Below, in pieces: positions 12,278-55,430 of a stretch of 64,000 nt of DNA (its first letter is position 1; the number at the start of each line of letters is the position of its first letter). The stretch comes from Alphaproteobacteria bacterium (lineage in GTDB: Bacteria; Pseudomonadota; Alphaproteobacteria; Rickettsiales; UBA998), in the NCBI GenBank assembly GCA_043765375.1, contig JAYUJH010000028.1, positions 12,332 to 76,331 on the forward strand, read 5' to 3'. Under the pieces are notes generated by a model. The model was given only the letters and a program-made list of their open reading frames with translations, had not been told where the DNA came from and ran no database searches. A program made the position numbers and the translations under genes.

Positions 12278-12516
12278 ATTATCATGTTGTATTGGCGTTA
12301 TTTTCTATAAATAGTTGTGCAATTGCTGCAATATTATCATTGCCTAGCCAACTGCGACTATCATGTAATTAAAATAGAGAGAACAGGAGAAAAATACAAG
12401 CGAAAAATATCCGTAACAATCCACACAAATCCGTCCCTAACCAATAATTATTTTGTGGGTTGATAAAAACTATTAGAGAGAAAATTGTTACAAATCAATA
12501 AGTTGCAATGAATAAA

Positions 12517-49561: not shown

Positions 49562-50110
49562 TTATTTTAATATTTTTAGTTCATTTAATCTTGTTTCCAT
49601 CGCTGGTTCAGAAACTTGAAACATTTCAGCGAGTTTTGTGATTGCTTCTTTAGTATTAATTTTTCCGTCCGATTTTCTGGCAATCATTTCCCTGATTTCC
49701 TTGATAATGCTTGATTGTGGCATTAATAATCTAGCAGCAAAATCATTAGCTTCCTTTTCTTTAGAGCTTTTATTTCCATCTTTTCTTGGTTCTCTAATAA
49801 CTATATCTTTTTTACCTTTTATAATTTCAGGTATAAAATGTTTTATATAATGTCCAATTTCATGGGCAGCGGTAAAATTACGCCTTAATTTATATTCAAA
49901 CGGATTAATCCATATTGTCGTTTTACCATCTGCATAAGTTATTTCTCCAGAGAGCGGCATTAACTCTGTCTCGTATCGCTCATTAAAAAATATTCCTAAT
50001 TTATCTATAATTGCATATGGATTAAAAGGAGGGAAGGTTAAGCCCAAAATTTGCAAAAGCTCCTCTGGTTCAATATTGTTTAATTCTTTGATTGTATATC
50101 CGGTTGACAT
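49562..50110 (-). CDS. ImmA/IrrE family (Peptidase_M78, COG2856-like) zinc metallopeptidase, standalone (cassette 1)
   Basis: 182 aa. Has RRNFTAAHEIGHYIKH (HExxH) and EKEANDFAARLLMP (third-ligand Glu region), C-terminal ...LAEMFQVSEPAMETRL. No HTH domain. Confidence 0.8.
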   Translation of the reverse strand: MSTGYTIKELNNIEPEELLQILGLTFPPFNPYAIIDKLGIFFNERYETELMPLSGEITYADGKTTIWINPFEYKLRRNFTAAHEIGHYIKHFIPEIIKGKKDIVIREPRKDGNKSSKEKEANDFAARLLMPQSSIIKEIREMIARKSDGKINTKEAITKLAEMFQVSEPAMETRLNELKILK

Positions 50111-50114
50111 CGGT

Positions 50115-50642
50115 CTAATCCCCTAAGCTACTTTCATAAATACAGGTTTGTTCTGAATATTCAATGGTTTTTTTCTTGTTTTCTTCGTTTGTCTTTGAAT
50201 CTATTAAGATTTTAACGGCTTCATTAAATTGATGTGAATCTATTATTGCTTGAATGATTTTAGTTTTCACTTCTCCTTCTGGAAGTAATCCAATTGCTAT
50301 GCTGTCGTTAATTTTATCTATCTCTATTTTAACATCCTGTTTTATTTCGTTCTTTAATGATTCTCTGCTTTGCTGAATGCGATATTGAAGCCAAATGAGT
50401 GCAAAACCTAAAAAAGTTACTAATATTGCACTAAATGCAAGTTGATTGCTTGCAGTTGACAAAACATTTTCAATATGCTGATTAACTATATCATATTTTC
50501 TGTCTAAAATCATCTCATAATGTATTTGTAGCTCAATATCTTTATCAAGGGCAGATAGATTGCCCATGTCCAACTGTAATTCATATGATTTTTGTAAATC
50601 TAACGAATTATATTTAATTGTTGAGGTTGCATTATTGTTCAT
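50115..50642 (-). CDS. Hypothetical single-pass membrane protein (cassette 1 partner); ORF is open to 50690, overlapping the aspS 3' end
   Basis: 175 aa from ATG 50642 (191 aa from 50690). Central helix LAFSAILVTFLGFALIWLQY flanked by charged, coiled-coil-like segments. AT-rich. Stop lies 4 nt before the peptidase ATG. Confidence 0.6.
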   Translation of the reverse strand: MNNNATSTIKYNSLDLQKSYELQLDMGNLSALDKDIELQIHYEMILDRKYDIVNQHIENVLSTASNQLAFSAILVTFLGFALIWLQYRIQQSRESLKNEIKQDVKIEIDKINDSIAIGLLPEGEVKTKIIQAIIDSHQFNEAVKILIDSKTNEENKKKTIEYSEQTCIYESSLGD

Positions 50643-50646
50643 AAAG

Positions 50647-52497
50647 TTAAGCGGCTTCTTCACCATTCCCAACAGTTCGTTCGCTGTCAATCACACCCTT
50701 CGCCTTAGCGGAGAGTTGCAAGTTTAGTTCCCGCAATTGCTTATCATCAACAATGGCGGGGGCGTTCATCAGCAAATCTTGCGCCCTTTGATTCATTGGA
50801 AATGCTATCACTTCGCGGATATTCGGCTCATCAGCAATCAGCATTACCATGCGGTCAATTCCTGGGGCGATACCACCATGCGGCGGTGCGCCATAATGAA
50901 ATGCTTTCCATAATGCGCCAAACTTGCGCTCAATCGCTGATTCATCATAGCCCGCAATTTCAAATGCTGCTCGCATAATATCGGGGCGGTGGTTACGGAT
51001 TGCACCAGACGAAAGTTCCACCCCGTTACAGACAATATCATATTGATATGCAAGGATTTTTAACAATTCTTCACGGTTACCTTTGGCAGCAAGCAACGCC
51101 TCCAACCCGCCTTGGGGCATTGAAAATGGATTATGTGAAAAAATGATTTTTTTCTCCTCAGCGTCCCATTCATAATAAGGAAAATCAACAACCCAACAAA
51201 ACTTGAAGATATTTTTATCAATTAATTCTAACTGAGTTCCAACTTCAGTTCGCACTTTACCCGCAATATTCGCTGCTTCATCAGGCGTGCCGCTGGCAAA
51301 AAATACGCTATCACCATTTTTTATTCCCACTTTTGCGCATAAAACAGCCAATTTATCTTGTGGTAAAAACTTCGCAATTGCTCCTTTTGCCACGCCGTCA
51401 TTATCCAATGTGATGTAAGCCAAGCCTTTTGCCCCATTTTCTTGCGCAAATGCTATCATTTTATCAAAGAAACTTCTCGGTTTGTCCGCCGTATTTGGTG
51501 CTGGAATTGCCCGCACCGCAAGCCCTTTGCTCGCCATATCAGCGAATATTTTGAACTCTGTGCCAGCCCAAATATCCGCCACTTCGCAAATCTCAATTGG
51601 ATTGCGCAAATCAGGTTTATCGCAACCATATTTAAGCATCGCCTGCGTGTAAGGAATGCGTGGAAATGCTTCTGTGCCAACATTTTTGCTAGAAAACTCT
51701 GTGAATAATTCACGCACCACTGGCTCAATCACGCCGAACACATCTTCTTGCGTGGCAAAACTCATTTCCATATCTAACTGATAAAACTCCCCCGGTGAAC
51801 GGTCAGCCCTTGCATCTTCATCACGAAAACATGGTGCAATTTGAAAATAGCGGTCAAAGCCAGAAGTCATCAGTAATTGCTTGAATATTTGCGGAGCTTG
51901 TGGCAGTGCATAAAACTTGCCCGCATGAACACGGCTTGGCACGAGATAATCCCTCGCTCCTTCAGGTGATGAACTGGTGAGAATTGGTGTTTGAATCTCC
52001 AAGAAATTAAGAGCAGTCATTTTTTGGCGCAAACTTGAAATCACCTTAGAGCGCAACACAATATTATTATGCAGTTTTTCACGGCGCAAATCTAAAAAGC
52101 GATATGTAAGCCTTGTTTCTTCAGGGAAATCACGCTCGCTATTCACCTGTAACGGCAATGGTTCAGCGAGGGATTCCACATGACAATCGGTGATTTTCAC
52201 CTCAATTGCTCCAGTGGCAAGTGTTGCATTAACCGCCTCTTGAGTGCGAGAAACAACCGCACCTTGCAATGTTATCACAGATTCATTTTTTAAGCCTGCC
52301 ACCACTTCAAACAGCGCATTTTCAATAATATTTTTATCTACCACGCATTGAGTGATACCATAATGATCGCGCAAATCTACAAATATCAACTGCCCATGAT
52401 CCCGCACACGATGCACCCAACCTGAGAGTTTGACTTGCTCACCTGCATGACTTTCGGTTAATTCGTTGCAATTATGGCTGCGATAAATATGGTTCAT
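50647..52497 (-). CDS. aspS: Aspartate--tRNA ligase (probably non-discriminating type)
   Basis: Has class II motifs FRDEDLRADR-like ([22 protein letters not shown]) and [13 protein letters not shown]. Start trimmed to ATG 52497 ([13 protein letters not shown]). Confidence 0.95.
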
Positions 52498-52628: not shown

Positions 52629-53774
52629 TCATGATAATTTATTTTTGAAATCTTCATAGCCAAATGATTTTATCAGACGATACTCACCATTTTCTTCCAA
52701 CACCCCAATATCTGGCAAAGGAACGCCATTGAAACTTGTATTTTTCACCATACTATATTGCATCATATCAGTAAATATAACATTATCACCCGCCTGCAAT
52801 GGTTTGGCGAAATTGTAAGTCCCGATAATATCACCTGTTAAGCAAGTATTGCCCGCTAAAATATATTGATGCGAATGAGAAGCATTCTCATTATTTGCGT
52901 CATCAATAATCGCCACATCACCAATCACATTTGGACGATATGGAACTTCCAACACATCGGGCATATGGCAAGTGGCTGAGGCGTTCAAAATAGCGATATT
53001 TGCACCGCCACAATGCACCACATCAATCACTGTTGCAACCAGATATCCCGCATCATAAACATGTGCTGCGCCAGATTCCATGATAATGCGCAAATTAAAT
53101 GTTGTTTGCATGTGGTTAATGGCGGCAATCAACGCCTCTACATCATAATTTGTATGGGTGAAATAATGCCCTCCCCCAATATTCAAATAATCAATATGAT
53201 GCAAAATATGCGGGGCAATATCGCATAAATGCGCAAGCAAAGCGGTGGAATCTGCTGCCATATTTTCGCATAAATTATGAACATGTAATAGGTTGATGTG
53301 GCTTAAAACTTCGGGCGTTATGTCTGATATAGTCACGCCAAAGCGAGATGTTGAGTTTGACGGGTCGTATATCGGGTTGTTCTGCACTAGCGATAAACGA
53401 GGATTAATGCGCAATCCCCGCACTTTGAACTGCTCACCATAAGCGGTTAATTGCTTGATTGAGTTGAAGGATATATGCTGACAAATCGGAGCAAGTTGGG
53501 CGATATCATCGGCTGAAAAAGCGGGGCAGTAAGCATGGACTTCACCACAAAAATGCTCATGTCCAAGCCTTGCTTCATATAGCCCACTTGCCGTTGTGCC
53601 ATCAAGCACTGTTGCAAACTCATTAAATATGGCAAACATGGAAAATGCTTTGGTCGCCAGCAACATGGTGCAATTTGTTGATTGTTTGATATGCGCTGCA
53701 ATACGCAAATTAGCCCGTATTTTAGCCATATCCGCCACATAAGCGGGGGTATTAATGTGGTTGAGGATTTTCAT
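52629..53774 (-). CDS. nspC: Carboxynorspermidine/carboxyspermidine decarboxylase
   Basis: Reads TPAYVADMAKIRANL..., with an alanine-racemase-like barrel pattern, GGGHYFT, and the C-terminal beta domain. Start trimmed to ATG 53774 (MKILNHINTPAYV), 1 nt after the upstream gene's stop. Confidence 0.82.
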   Translation of the reverse strand: MKILNHINTPAYVADMAKIRANLRIAAHIKQSTNCTMLLATKAFSMFAIFNEFATVLDGTTASGLYEARLGHEHFCGEVHAYCPAFSADDIAQLAPICQHISFNSIKQLTAYGEQFKVRGLRINPRLSLVQNNPIYDPSNSTSRFGVTISDITPEVLSHINLLHVHNLCENMAADSTALLAHLCDIAPHILHHIDYLNIGGGHYFTHTNYDVEALIAAINHMQTTFNLRIIMESGAAHVYDAGYLVATVIDVVHCGGANIAILNASATCHMPDVLEVPYRPNVIGDVAIIDDANNENASHSHQYILAGNTCLTGDIIGTYNFAKPLQAGDNVIFTDMMQYSMVKNTSFNGVPLPDIGVLEENGEYRLIKSFGYEDFKNKLS

Positions 53775-53775
53775 G

Positions 53776-54096
53776 TTATTTGTTGTCTGAAGTAGAATCT
53801 TTAAGTAATTTAACGAAAAATCCTGCCACTCCCCCAACTGCAAAAATTGTTACTCGTTCAATTGTTTGAATTGATTGAGGTTCAACGGAATTATTATCTA
53901 ATAAATATATTCCATATAAATATGCTGAAAACGCTATTGCGGTGGATAATGTTAAACAAATTATGAAAATTATGACGGCTAAACAAAAGACAATCCAATT
54001 ATATAATTTTTGTTTGCGACGTTCGGAAATATCCTCCTTGACCTCTGCGTTTAGGCTTTCTTCAAAGGTAGTATTATATTCTTTATCATTATTCAT
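53776..54096 (-). CDS. Hypothetical small two-TM membrane protein (cassette 2 partner)
   Basis: 106 aa. Helices WIVFCLAVIIFIICLTLSTAIAFSAYLYGIYLL and VTIFAVGGVAGFFVKLL. ATGA overlap with the upstream peptidase stop. AT-rich. Confidence 0.6.
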   Translation of the reverse strand: MNNDKEYNTTFEESLNAEVKEDISERRKQKLYNWIVFCLAVIIFIICLTLSTAIAFSAYLYGIYLLDNNSVEPQSIQTIERVTIFAVGGVAGFFVKLLKDSTSDNK

Positions 54097-54602
54097 GATG
54101 CAGATACAAGCCCCAGACTTAATGCTCTATAGTATGTTGCATCTTTGGAAACGCCAAAAAAATCTGCAATATCTTGAATCTTTGGCTCTGCTCCCAGTGC
54201 TTGCCACGCTTTGATGAAGTGATTAGTTGGCATAAGCAAGTTAGCAGCAAATTGATTGGCTTCTAATTCTCTTCCACGATATTCAAAGTCAATTATGTCA
54301 CCGTCTCTGTCTATAACTCTATGTTCCTCTAAATAATCACGATGAATCACAAAATGTGCAATTTCATGGGCTATAGTAAATCTTCTTCTCACCGCAGCTT
54401 TTCTTTCATTGATAATTATGCTAACTTCACCCTTTTCATTAATTTGGATATGACCATCTTTACCCTTAGCATAATTTTTAGACTGTTCAATTCTAATCCC
54501 TAGATTGTCGCAAATCTGTCCAATTTGAACCATTGGCTTAATTGAAGGTAATCCTTGAAGTAATTCCTGAGCTTTGCTTTCTATCTCTTCTCTCATTATC
54601 AT
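54093..54602 (-). CDS. ImmA/IrrE family (Peptidase_M78, COG2856-like) zinc metallopeptidase, standalone (cassette 2)
   Basis: Has RRRFTIAHEIAHFVIH (HExxH), ELEANQFAANLLMP, and ...IADFFGVSKDATYYRALSLGL. Start set at ATG 54602 (alternative 54596). The track's TTG 54638 coincides with a -35 hexamer. Confidence 0.8.
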   Translation of the reverse strand: MIMREEIESKAQELLQGLPSIKPMVQIGQICDNLGIRIEQSKNYAKGKDGHIQINEKGEVSIIINERKAAVRRRFTIAHEIAHFVIHRDYLEEHRVIDRDGDIIDFEYRGRELEANQFAANLLMPTNHFIKAWQALGAEPKIQDIADFFGVSKDATYYRALSLGLVSAS

Positions 54603-54609
54603 AAATGAT

Positions 54610-54638
54610 ATTATATATAACGTAAATCGCTTTTGCAA
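54610..54638 (-). promoter_or_regulatory. Near-consensus sigma70 promoter TTGCAA-N17-TATAAT immediately upstream of the cassette 2 peptidase (possible leaderless mRNA)
   Basis: The minus strand reads cTTGCAAaagcgatttacgttataTATAATatcatttATG. Only 7 nt separate the -10 from the ATG, and there is no SD. Confidence 0.5.
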
Positions 54639-54651
54639 GTAATTATGATAT

Positions 54652-55179
54652 TTACAATTTCAACAATTTTTTGCGAATGTCGGGTTCGGAGGTGGATTCA
54701 CCAAGCCAGATTCCCATGAATGCTTGTTCCATTTCAGCGTTACGTAACACGCCCGTTGATTTGCCATTATGGCAGAAAAATAATCCCATATTCGGGCGAT
54801 AAACCGCAGATATATTATCACCTTCCACGACATTTGGCAAAAGTGGGGGCAAAATCCGTTTGAAATCTTCCAACATCACTGCATCAACATTTTTATTATG
54901 CTGCAATTCCTCCAGACTCCGTTCCACAAAATCTTCGCCGTCAATATCCACAAAATATGTGAGATGCAGGGCGTGGGGGGAGTTCATGTTCCATTTTGGG
55001 GAATCACTCCAAAACTCTACATCATAAACATGGAACAACAACTTGTTGAGGGTAGCAGTGCCTTGAGGTTTGCTGCTTTTAACAACTGAGGCAATGCAAG
55101 GCGGCGCAGAATTAGCAATATTTGCGGTGTAAAAAATCAAAAAACAACATAACATCAAAATATATTTTTTCATAAACAT
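54652..55179 (-). CDS. Chalcone isomerase-like family periplasmic protein
   Basis: 175 aa with a signal peptide. Has ...LLFHVYDVEFWSD..., HALHLTYFVDIDGEDFV and FMGIWLGESTSEPDIRKKLL, typical of bacterial CHI-like proteins. Confidence 0.55.
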   Translation of the reverse strand: MFMKKYILMLCCFLIFYTANIANSAPPCIASVVKSSKPQGTATLNKLLFHVYDVEFWSDSPKWNMNSPHALHLTYFVDIDGEDFVERSLEELQHNKNVDAVMLEDFKRILPPLLPNVVEGDNISAVYRPNMGLFFCHNGKSTGVLRNAEMEQAFMGIWLGESTSEPDIRKKLLKL

Positions 55180-55430
55180 GGTATATCGTTTTTTTATGAA
55201 AATAGCAAAATTAAAATATATGGGAAAAAATCATATAAAATAATGGGAAAAAATCATAGTGGAAATTAGAAATAATGATTGCATTGTTTATATTGTTGAA
55301 CGTAGATGATGTTGGCAATGCTTTATTAAAGTCACGTAACATATAATTAGAATTATCTTGCAAATATTAAAGCATTTTTAATAAAAATAGCTGGTGATGT
55401 TGGCATTTTTGCGCTATTATGTAAAATAAA

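Follow-up and report, generated by a model that had tools for sequence, protein, structure and literature searches.

An M78 metallopeptidase gene paired with a gene for a small two-helix membrane protein upstream of nspC in an alphaproteobacterial genome

Introduction

What might an M78 (ImmA/IrrE) metallopeptidase do when no repressor gene accompanies it and its reading frame overlaps that of a small membrane protein in front of a housekeeping gene? This question is raised by a pair of genes, here called cassette 2, lying directly upstream of nspC in a 64,000-nucleotide (nt) stretch of DNA (the window) from an alphaproteobacterium (GTDB lineage Rickettsiales; UBA998; GenBank assembly GCA_043765375.1, contig JAYUJH010000028.1, forward-strand positions 12,332 to 76,331). 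M78 peptidases have so far been understood almost only as enzymes that cut Xre-type repressors, and what is new here is a recurrent repressor-less M78 module whose constant partner comes from a family of small membrane hairpins that carries no annotation. It is well supported that the pair is a self-contained mobile two-gene module, composed of an ImmA-sized M78 peptidase and a coupled two-helix membrane protein of about 100 amino acids (aa). An earlier note on this DNA had presented the pair as the second of two peptidase cassettes in the window, inserted between a CHI-like gene and nspC and fitting a scheme in which a conserved protease is combined with variable membrane proteins.

The M78 peptidase and its membrane partner

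Read along the minus strand, the CHI-like gene is followed by a 49-nt spacer, the M78 peptidase, the membrane protein, one base, and nspC (Table 1). The peptidase open reading frame (ORF) carries RFTIAHEIAHFVIH and ELEANQFAANLLMP and matches the Peptidase_M78 family over profile positions 1-122 of 123 (74.7 bits, cut-off 22). A HEIAH sequence is found at residues 79-83 and an E-x-E-A-N motif (ELEAN) 28 residues downstream, with both the HEXXH and the downstream Glu motif invariant across six clade members (the window copy and five relatives). The ImmA/IrrE-type identity assigned in the earlier note is therefore borne out by the Pfam match and the intact HEXXH, while the motif spacing, described there as the same as that of cassette 1, is similar but not identical (30 residues in cassette 1). 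The peptidase has neither a helix-turn-helix (HTH) domain nor a C-terminal GAF-like domain. Its matches to the PADLOC profiles capP (E 1.5e-30) and RmrA (E 4.7e-17) cover the peptidase part only, and its matches in the PDB are CapP (7t5t, E 3.7e-8) and IrrE (3dte, E 1.5e-5). A longer form beginning at TTG 54638 (181 aa) is unlikely to be the real one, since that codon lies inside the promoter-like element described below.

The stop codon of the peptidase overlaps the start of the 106-aa membrane protein in an ATGA sequence, which indicates translational coupling of the two genes, and the membrane-protein stop is separated by one base from the nspC start; both junctions were reproduced as the earlier note had given them. 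Hydropathy places the hydrophobic segments of the 106-aa protein at about residues 29-61 and 82-98. Of the "two strongly hydrophobic helices" claimed for it, the number stands, but the second helix is short (about 17 residues) and of moderate hydrophobicity. AlphaFold2, run with a 29-sequence alignment, models the protein as a helical hairpin (helices at residues 6-66 and 73-103) with a mean predicted local distance difference test score of 83. From the N-terminus onwards, the protein has about 30 aa of charged tail, which presumably lie in the cytoplasm, then a long transmembrane (TM) helix, a loop that is short and acidic, a second hydrophobic helix, itself short and bearing a GG motif, and a C-terminus of basic character.

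When the 106-aa protein was used as the query of word-indexed searches, by itself or within a three-sequence profile, nothing beyond the input sequences was returned. The nearest relatives of the peptidase (P0002 and P0003, 47-48% identity) each have an overlapping downstream gene whose product, of 97 or 101 aa, is built like the window protein; these two partners are homologous to each other (E 8e-17) and show weak pairwise similarity to the 106-aa protein (E 2e-4 and 8e-4). When the three-sequence membrane-protein profile was used in an exhaustive HMMER scan of 1.84 billion representatives, 35 family members were recovered at E<=1e-3, nearly all of them 96-109 aa in length. The window protein has an E of 1.5e-38 in the seed profile and is 44% identical to P0128 and 33% identical to P0141. 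In the family alignment, conservation is highest in the N-terminal tail, which has the pattern LTDxxLExERKxGxHxRxExxDD and an Arg (Arg27) that never varies; the long TM helix is variable, the loop carries NPxSVxxxSIxxIE, and the second helix carries THxxAxxGGYxxHxxKR. No Pfam, PHROG, PADLOC, or NCBIfam model matched the family, and a fold search of the PDB with the hairpin model gave no match. Judged by these profile comparisons, the 106-aa protein belongs to a previously undescribed family of two-TM proteins of about 100 aa, and the small ORF, a lack of conservation of which would have refuted the reading of the earlier note, is conserved.

An M78 peptidase gene lies directly upstream on the same strand in all nine family members that were looked up (P0121, P0124, P0125, P0127, P0128, P0136, P0137, P0141, and P0151), and in all relatives the two genes either overlap by 1-4 nt or are separated by no more than 9 nt. 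The family hidden Markov model (HMM) also matches the ORF downstream of more distant M78 peptidases on four viral or metagenomic contigs. The pairing of this membrane protein with an M78 peptidase is obligate.

Table 1. Features of the cassette 2 locus and other features of the window (positions are those of the window)
Feature	Position	Strand	Evidence or remark
CHI-like gene	54652..55179	-	Chalcone_3-like match, E 9e-12
Promoter-like element	54610..54638	-	TTGCAA-17 nt-TATAAT in the 49-nt spacer 3' of the CHI-like gene
M78 zinc metallopeptidase, 169 aa, ImmA-sized, single-domain	54093..54602	-	PF06114, E 7e-21
ATGA stop/start overlap, peptidase/membrane protein	54093..54096	-	read from sequence
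106-aa two-helix membrane protein	53776..54096	-	hydropathy, AlphaFold2, family profile
Membrane-protein stop codon	53778-53776	-	TAA
nspC start codon	53774	-	ATG, one base after the membrane-protein stop
nspC (carboxynorspermidine/carboxyspermidine decarboxylase)	52629..53774	-	TIGR01047, E 8e-119
Cassette 1	49562..50690	-	single-TM protein (175-191 aa), then 182-aa M78 peptidase, lipB 2 nt later
Direct repeat ATGGGAAAAAATCATA	55220..55258		exact, 16 nt, two copies, 23 nt apart start to start

Occurrence of the pair in mobile and metabolic contexts

The genomic contexts of the pair include prophage lysogeny modules, integrase and defence islands, and copies wedged into metabolic operons, and the pair is thus a mobile module. 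In L002, a cro-like gene is divergent from a CI-like repressor gene, which is followed by the peptidase (21 nt downstream) and then the TM protein, and in L003 RusA and a pol III beta-like gene are nearby. The pair in L088 follows genes for a tail fibre, a lysozyme, and an integrase and precedes an ANT-like gene; in L251, an HTH_3 repressor gene is found on the opposite strand, followed by methylases and DnaB. Reverse transcriptase, MtlR, a P4-type integrase, and AlpA accompany the pair in L257/L258. In L259/L260, the pair stands between an SDR gene and an ADC-family gene with a 3-nt junction to the latter, and the cassettes (L259:2071-2900 and its counterpart in L260) have GC contents of 0.38 and 0.48 within a genome of GC 0.59. 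The L259 peptidase lacks HEXXH (SAIASLIGKYF), while its TM partner retains all family motifs.

The context in L252/L253 contains serine recombinases, PIN_12, HigB with an HTH-M78 fusion, and AAA_15. Here a HigB-like toxin gene is followed by a gene for a 370-aa HTH-M78 fusion of PD-Lambda-2/RmrA-like architecture (L252:10571-11987, minus strand), such that two different M78 systems occur within 5 kb between serine recombinases. An Xre-peptidase fusion, toxic in its own right, is part of PD-Lambda-2 (PMC9519451).

No HTH gene adjoins the pair in the window, L086, L088, L089, L252, L257, or L259. In addition, no Xre-type HTH ORF was identified when the 64-kb window was scanned in six frames with a rough Xre/CI HMM, in agreement with the earlier observation that cassette 2 has no adjacent HTH partner.

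Linkage of the cassette to nspC

The association of the cassette with nspC was observed in two lineages other than that of the window. On a short contig from a related organism (L086), the peptidase C-terminus, the ATGA overlap, the TM protein, one base, and nspC follow one another, with identities to the window of 80% over 50 aa for the peptidase C-terminus, 44% for the TM protein, and 73% for nspC. A third organism (L089/L090) contains the peptidase-TM-nspC trio with nspC overlapping the TM stop by 4 nt, and here the identities are 46% (peptidase), 40% over 72 aa (TM protein), and 72% (nspC). The upstream neighbourhood in this organism differs (QueH and two unknown genes), and only the nspC side of the cassette junction is conserved across the three lineages. 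Compared over the columns shared by the window, L086, and L089, nspC is 72.9% identical between the window and L086, 68.5% between the window and L089, and 67.3% between L086 and L089; the corresponding values are 83%, 49%, and 51% for the peptidase and 46.5%, 31%, and 32% for the TM protein. Whichever of the three genes is considered, the identities correspond to the topology ((window, L086), L089), and in a neighbour-joining tree of the TM family the three members linked to nspC group as a single clade.

The presence of the same trio with congruent divergence in three uncultured, related lineages of alphaproteobacteria shows that the capture is old, and the most economical reading of these comparisons is that the cassette was captured once, in an ancestor, upstream of nspC and then descended vertically under protein-level selection. 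A recent insertion was considered in view of the AT-rich composition and rejected, since the linkage to nspC is conserved in the two other lineages; the description of the cassette as inserted between the CHI-like gene and nspC therefore does not hold in the sense of a recent event, the trio being kept where nspC is only 68-73% identical. Values of dN, the rate of nonsynonymous substitution, were 0.16 for the peptidase C-terminus, 0.215 for nspC, and 0.46 for the TM gene; dN alone was used, as the synonymous rate (dS) was saturated (>1 or undefined) in all comparisons and dN/dS was unreliable. The TM gene keeps an intact frame at 46% identity together with the family motifs (TIER, GG, and the invariant Arg). 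Peptidase identity to the window copy falls from 83% in L086 to 49% in L089 (L089:7482-7991) for a small extra divergence of nspC, a mismatch that would reflect either faster evolution of the cassette in one lineage or its replacement by a related cassette at the same site.

Among 80 other alphaproteobacterial nspC loci (GTDB representative genomes, 44-64% identity), none contained the peptidase-TM cassette. These 80 loci share no synteny with the window, and no empty insertion site could be demonstrated among them. CANSDH is located just upstream of nspC in 57 of the 80 but is absent from the 64-kb window and from L089, such that the cassette occupies the position held by CANSDH in most of the other nspC loci fetched. 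The overall GC content is 0.365 in the peptidase gene and 0.305 in the membrane-protein gene, and the GC content at third codon positions (GC3) is 0.25 and 0.22, respectively, compared to 0.39-0.44 in nspC, aspS, the CHI-like gene, and iscS, which bears out the earlier remark that the cassette is more AT-rich than its flanks. Neither cassette 1 nor cassette 2 was found to be flanked by direct repeats, inverted repeats, att-like sites, or a recombinase gene.

Probable promoter and co-transcription

The element TTGCAA-17-TATAAT in the spacer upstream of the peptidase matches the promoter consensus at 10 of 12 positions, and its -10 hexamer ends 7 nt before the peptidase ATG (54602). A -10-like hexamer ending 6-7 nt before the peptidase start was found in five of ten contexts (the window, L089, L088, L252, and L257), compared to 8 of 102 control ORFs from the same sequences (P about 5e-4), some of these eight being the peptidase genes themselves. 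The window and L089 also have a -35 region, TTACTTGCA, in common. The cassette probably has a promoter of its own that gives a leaderless transcript. On the minus strand, neither a terminator-like site nor a recognisable Shine-Dalgarno sequence was identified between the TM gene and nspC, and because of the lack of a terminator and the 1-nt junction, nspC is probably co-transcribed with the cassette and may depend on its promoter.

Cassette 1 and the breadth of the peptidase-partner pattern

The window contains two M78 genes only, the other being in cassette 1, which is wedged into the aspS-lipB array as tightly as cassette 2 is into its own surroundings. The start of the cassette 1 TM protein is ambiguous (either TTG 50690, overlapping the end of aspS, or a start 5 nt past the aspS stop), and the protein has no match in Pfam, PADLOC, or NCBIfam. 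Cassette 1 has a GC3 of 0.22-0.28, and its peptidase matches the PADLOC model PDC-M69B (E 1.2e-13). The peptidases of the two cassettes are 32% identical (pairwise E 2e-15). In a common phmmer ranking, however, the two score 40 bits against each other, while none of the 120 best database relatives scores below 55.9 bits; for the cassette 1 peptidase, that of cassette 2 ranks 70th of 120. A duplicated paralogous module was therefore rejected, the cassette 1 peptidase scoring below the 120 best relatives of the cassette 2 peptidase; peptidases no closer to each other than to other M78 members were one of the outcomes that the earlier note had named as refuting its reading. The TM partners are unrelated, as they had looked to the earlier note, and because of this and the low score between the peptidases, the two cassettes are independent acquisitions of one general kind of module.

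How widely short M78 peptidases are combined with other proteins was surveyed in 160 loci (80 from IMG/VR and 80 from metagenomes) with stand-alone short M78 peptidases, 166 loci being examined in total. The surveyed peptidases are at most 45% identical to the window peptidase, mostly 30-40%, and the set was used as a partner survey only; close relatives of the peptidase clade were not found in the viral or metagenome scans. In about 51 of the 166 loci, a same-strand downstream gene that overlaps the peptidase gene or follows it closely encodes a protein of 80-220 aa in which one hydrophobic segment or, in most cases, two are present; the partners are of diverse sequence, with essentially no annotation. 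When 36 diverse TM partners were scanned against Pfam and PHROG, only scattered weak matches resulted (DUF2207_C, Phage_holin_3_6 with E 0.006, and CyanoTRADDas_TM). The pattern of a conserved protease with variable membrane partners, suggested earlier from the two cassettes, is thus borne out in about a third of short stand-alone M78 peptidases on viral and metagenomic contigs.

The same survey contained a second kind of partner, recurrent in viral contigs. In about 20 loci, the peptidase is accompanied by a protein of roughly 350 aa (about 340-430 aa) matching PF14350 (Beta_protein), the gene for which often overlaps the peptidase stop (loci L099, with E 7e-45, L101, L114, L120-L122, L126, L146, and L152 among them). 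The combination "Beta_protein + Peptidase_M78" appears in the P4/P2 hotspot tables as well (PMC9122126).

Comparison with known systems

Several described systems resemble the pair in part. In the account given in PMC7693887, SieF7/2AB of lactococcal prophages is identical to ORF2/ORF3 of TP901-1 (McGrath et al. 2002, as summarised there) and combines a membrane-associated protein with one bearing a Zn-metalloprotease motif, the two jointly reducing the plaquing of other phages. We found that TP901-1 ORF3 is an M78 peptidase (PF06114, E 1e-5) encoded directly after cI, the order being cI, peptidase, partner, and int. SieF7/2AB and the window pair are both two-gene tandems of an M78 peptidase and a membrane partner, and the order CI, peptidase, TM in L002 matches that of TP901-1; a position in a lysogeny module is shared by L002, L088, and L251 but not by the window. 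On the other hand, TP901-1 ORF2 is an unrelated 181-aa protein with bPH_3 and SHOCT domains compared to the two-TM hairpin of the window, the host is Gram-positive, the similarity of the peptidases is remote, and the window copy lies outside any prophage.

Rousset et al. (2022) listed "Peptidase_M78 + hypothetical" in the gpA-gpQ hotspot of P2-like phages (PMC9122126, Tables S2 and S5). In these phages, a 161-aa M78 peptidase and a 159-199-aa two-TM protein are encoded after gene A, in a context rich in anti-phage systems. The likeness to the window pair extends to a stand-alone peptidase (about 32% identical), a same-strand two-TM partner, and the lack of an HTH; however, the TM partner is larger and is not matched by the window TM-family HMM at E<=0.01, and the genes are 66-210 nt apart, whereas they overlap in the window.

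RosmerTA consists of a Zn-peptidase (M78) antitoxin, RmrA, and a toxin, RmrT, of unknown function (Millman et al. 2022, bioRxiv 10.1101/2022.05.11.491447). As a two-gene defence/TA system with an M78 member it resembles the window pair, and RmrA profiles match the window peptidase with E values down to 4.7e-17. However, RmrA proteins span 360-400 aa and include an HTH at the N-terminus and a further domain at the C-terminus; only about positions 135-294 of their profiles are matched, and coverage of the NCBIfam spr1629 antitoxin model is partial in the same way (170-298 of 377). The 106-aa protein matched no PADLOC model, and hence no RmrT model, at E<=1. With a length of 169 aa, partial coverage of RmrA, and no RmrT partner, membership in RosmerTA was rejected.

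CapP is the best PADLOC and PDB match and has the same M78 catalytic domain, but its profile is covered only at 3-154 of 242 and the neighbours of the window pair are CHI-like, nspC, and aspS; given this partial coverage and the absence of an adjacent CapH or defence operon, CapP/CapH membership was rejected. More generally, the ImmA/ImmR (ICEBs1), IrrE/DdrO (Deinococcus), and CapP/CapH (CBASS regulation) systems share the M78 catalytic domain with the window pair, and L002 and L251 have CI/Xre repressors nearby. The window peptidase lacks the additional domain found at the C-terminus of IrrE and CapP, and the adjacent Xre-type repressor of all three systems is absent here and in most contexts of the clade. 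ImmA of ICEBs1 has 169 aa, the same size as the window peptidase. As for the membrane partner, T4 Imm, which mediates superinfection exclusion (Sie), and the class II holins are phage-encoded proteins of about 80-110 aa with two TM segments and a charged C-terminus; both of their termini are probably cytoplasmic. In size and layout they resemble the 106-aa protein, but they are not known to be paired with a peptidase, and similarity in sequence or fold is not detectable.

Proposed function and alternative explanations

The function we favour for cassette 2, with a probability that we place a little short of even, is that of a membrane effector controlled by its peptidase, the two forming a phage exclusion or toxin-antitoxin (TA)-like pair that was captured at nspC and inherited vertically there. 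An ancestral copy of the module was captured directly upstream of nspC, in the usual place of CANSDH, and passed on by descent, and it now probably also drives nspC expression. The membrane hairpin would be the effector, either perturbing the membrane in the manner of a holin or toxin or blocking the entry of phage DNA. The peptidase, made first and in a fixed ratio, would control the hairpin by binding or cutting its conserved cytoplasmic N-terminal tail, and the pair would act as a prophage-type exclusion, abortive-infection, or TA-like system. Cleavage of the tail is plausible in view of its conservation, which is the highest within the family, and an addictive property of this kind is proposed as the reason why both reading frames have survived for a long time in a housekeeping operon. 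The architecture resembles that of a type II TA pair in that the two genes form an overlapping operon, occur in mobile contexts, and are arranged with the gene of the proposed neutraliser, the peptidase, first. The favoured function also draws on analogy with RmrA and CapP, with SieF7/2AB, with the pair in the P2 hotspot, and with the diverse small TM partners at about 51 of 166 short M78 loci. A more specific version, which we consider unlikely, would make the pair an HTH-less two-component system in which the peptidase gates the membrane effector through its tail, and which would behave as a leaderless, addictive exclusion or abortive-infection module that wedges itself 0-3 nt before a host gene and becomes its promoter; the cases of such wedging are nspC in the window lineage and the ADC-family gene in L259.

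Several observations weigh against control of a membrane effector by the peptidase or against long residence at nspC. None of the known models for toxins, holins, Sie proteins, or RmrT matched the 106-aa protein, nor did any fold in the PDB. The P2 "Peptidase + TM" system (pFR104) was not among the three of eight cloned P2 systems that protected against the set of eight test phages (PMC9122126). The L259 peptidase without HEXXH stands beside an intact TM partner, so that tolerance of the partner does not require proteolysis in every case. The CI-like repressor gene adjoining the peptidase in L002 could mean that the ancestral substrate was a repressor rather than the TM protein. Finally, the low GC3 of the cassette persists despite its long residence at nspC.

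The L002 arrangement is also the starting point of the main alternative, which we judge doubtful though well worth weighing, namely that the peptidase acts as an anti-repressor of the classical ImmA type, its Xre/CI-type substrate being lost or encoded at another place in the genome, with the membrane protein as an accessory (a superinfection-exclusion protein like T4 Imm or Sie2009, or a membrane tether or sensor governing when the protease is active). The CI-like gene upstream of the L002 peptidase corresponds to the ImmR-ImmA arrangement, TP901-1 has the order cI, M78 peptidase, and partner, an HTH_3 repressor is near the pair in L251, and the best-scoring characterised relatives, CapP and IrrE, cleave HTH repressors; the size shared with ICEBs1 ImmA fits as well. 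However, the partner that remains constant is the TM protein and not an HTH protein (nine of nine look-ups), the pair persists as an isolated unit in housekeeping operons, and HTH genes are lacking beside the pair in the contexts named above and throughout the window.

Two other explanations concern the position of the cassette at nspC. It is improbable that the cassette is a functionless leftover of a prophage, kept only for the promoter and the translational coupling through which nspC is expressed after loss of the CANSDH-nspC context. The promoter-like site directly upstream, the TM-nspC junction of 1 nt or a 4-nt overlap without a terminator, the missing CANSDH upstream of nspC compared to 57 of 80 other loci, the fast evolution of the TM gene (dN 0.46), and the catalytically dead peptidase of L259 are all consistent with such a leftover; but a promoter donor needs no two intact ORFs, the peptidase C-terminus exceeds nspC in conservation (83% compared to 73% identity; dN 0.16 compared to 0.215) with HEXXH intact, and the TM protein has kept TIER, GG, and the invariant Arg. 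Very improbable, in our estimate, is a membrane-linked regulatory pair for polyamine (norspermidine/spermidine) synthesis, for example a sensor and a protease controlling NspC or its regulator. The conserved and translationally tight peptidase-TM-nspC linkage in three lineages would fit this role, but most family members occur in phage or mobile contexts without nspC, one pair precedes the unrelated ADC-family gene, and none of the 80 other alphaproteobacterial nspC loci has the pair.

If the protease does control a membrane effector, as in the reading favoured here, the substrate range of M78 peptidases would be widened, and a mechanism would be offered for the "Peptidase + TM" cassettes of defence hotspots and for the two-component lactococcal Sie systems. 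The nspC-linked copies provide a clean case of a phage-derived cassette fixed in a housekeeping operon, where it probably supplies the promoter. As judged from the sequences compared, the pair is a well-delimited candidate and not yet a discovery, being of a known kind (an M78 peptidase with a variable partner) with a partner family that has not been described before.

Other features of the window

Beyond the CHI-like gene, the divergent CHI-like/iscS intergenic region is very AT-rich (GC about 0.25) and contains the two copies of the direct repeat ATGGGAAAAAATCATA (Table 1). This repeat may be a binding site for a regulator of the isc operon.

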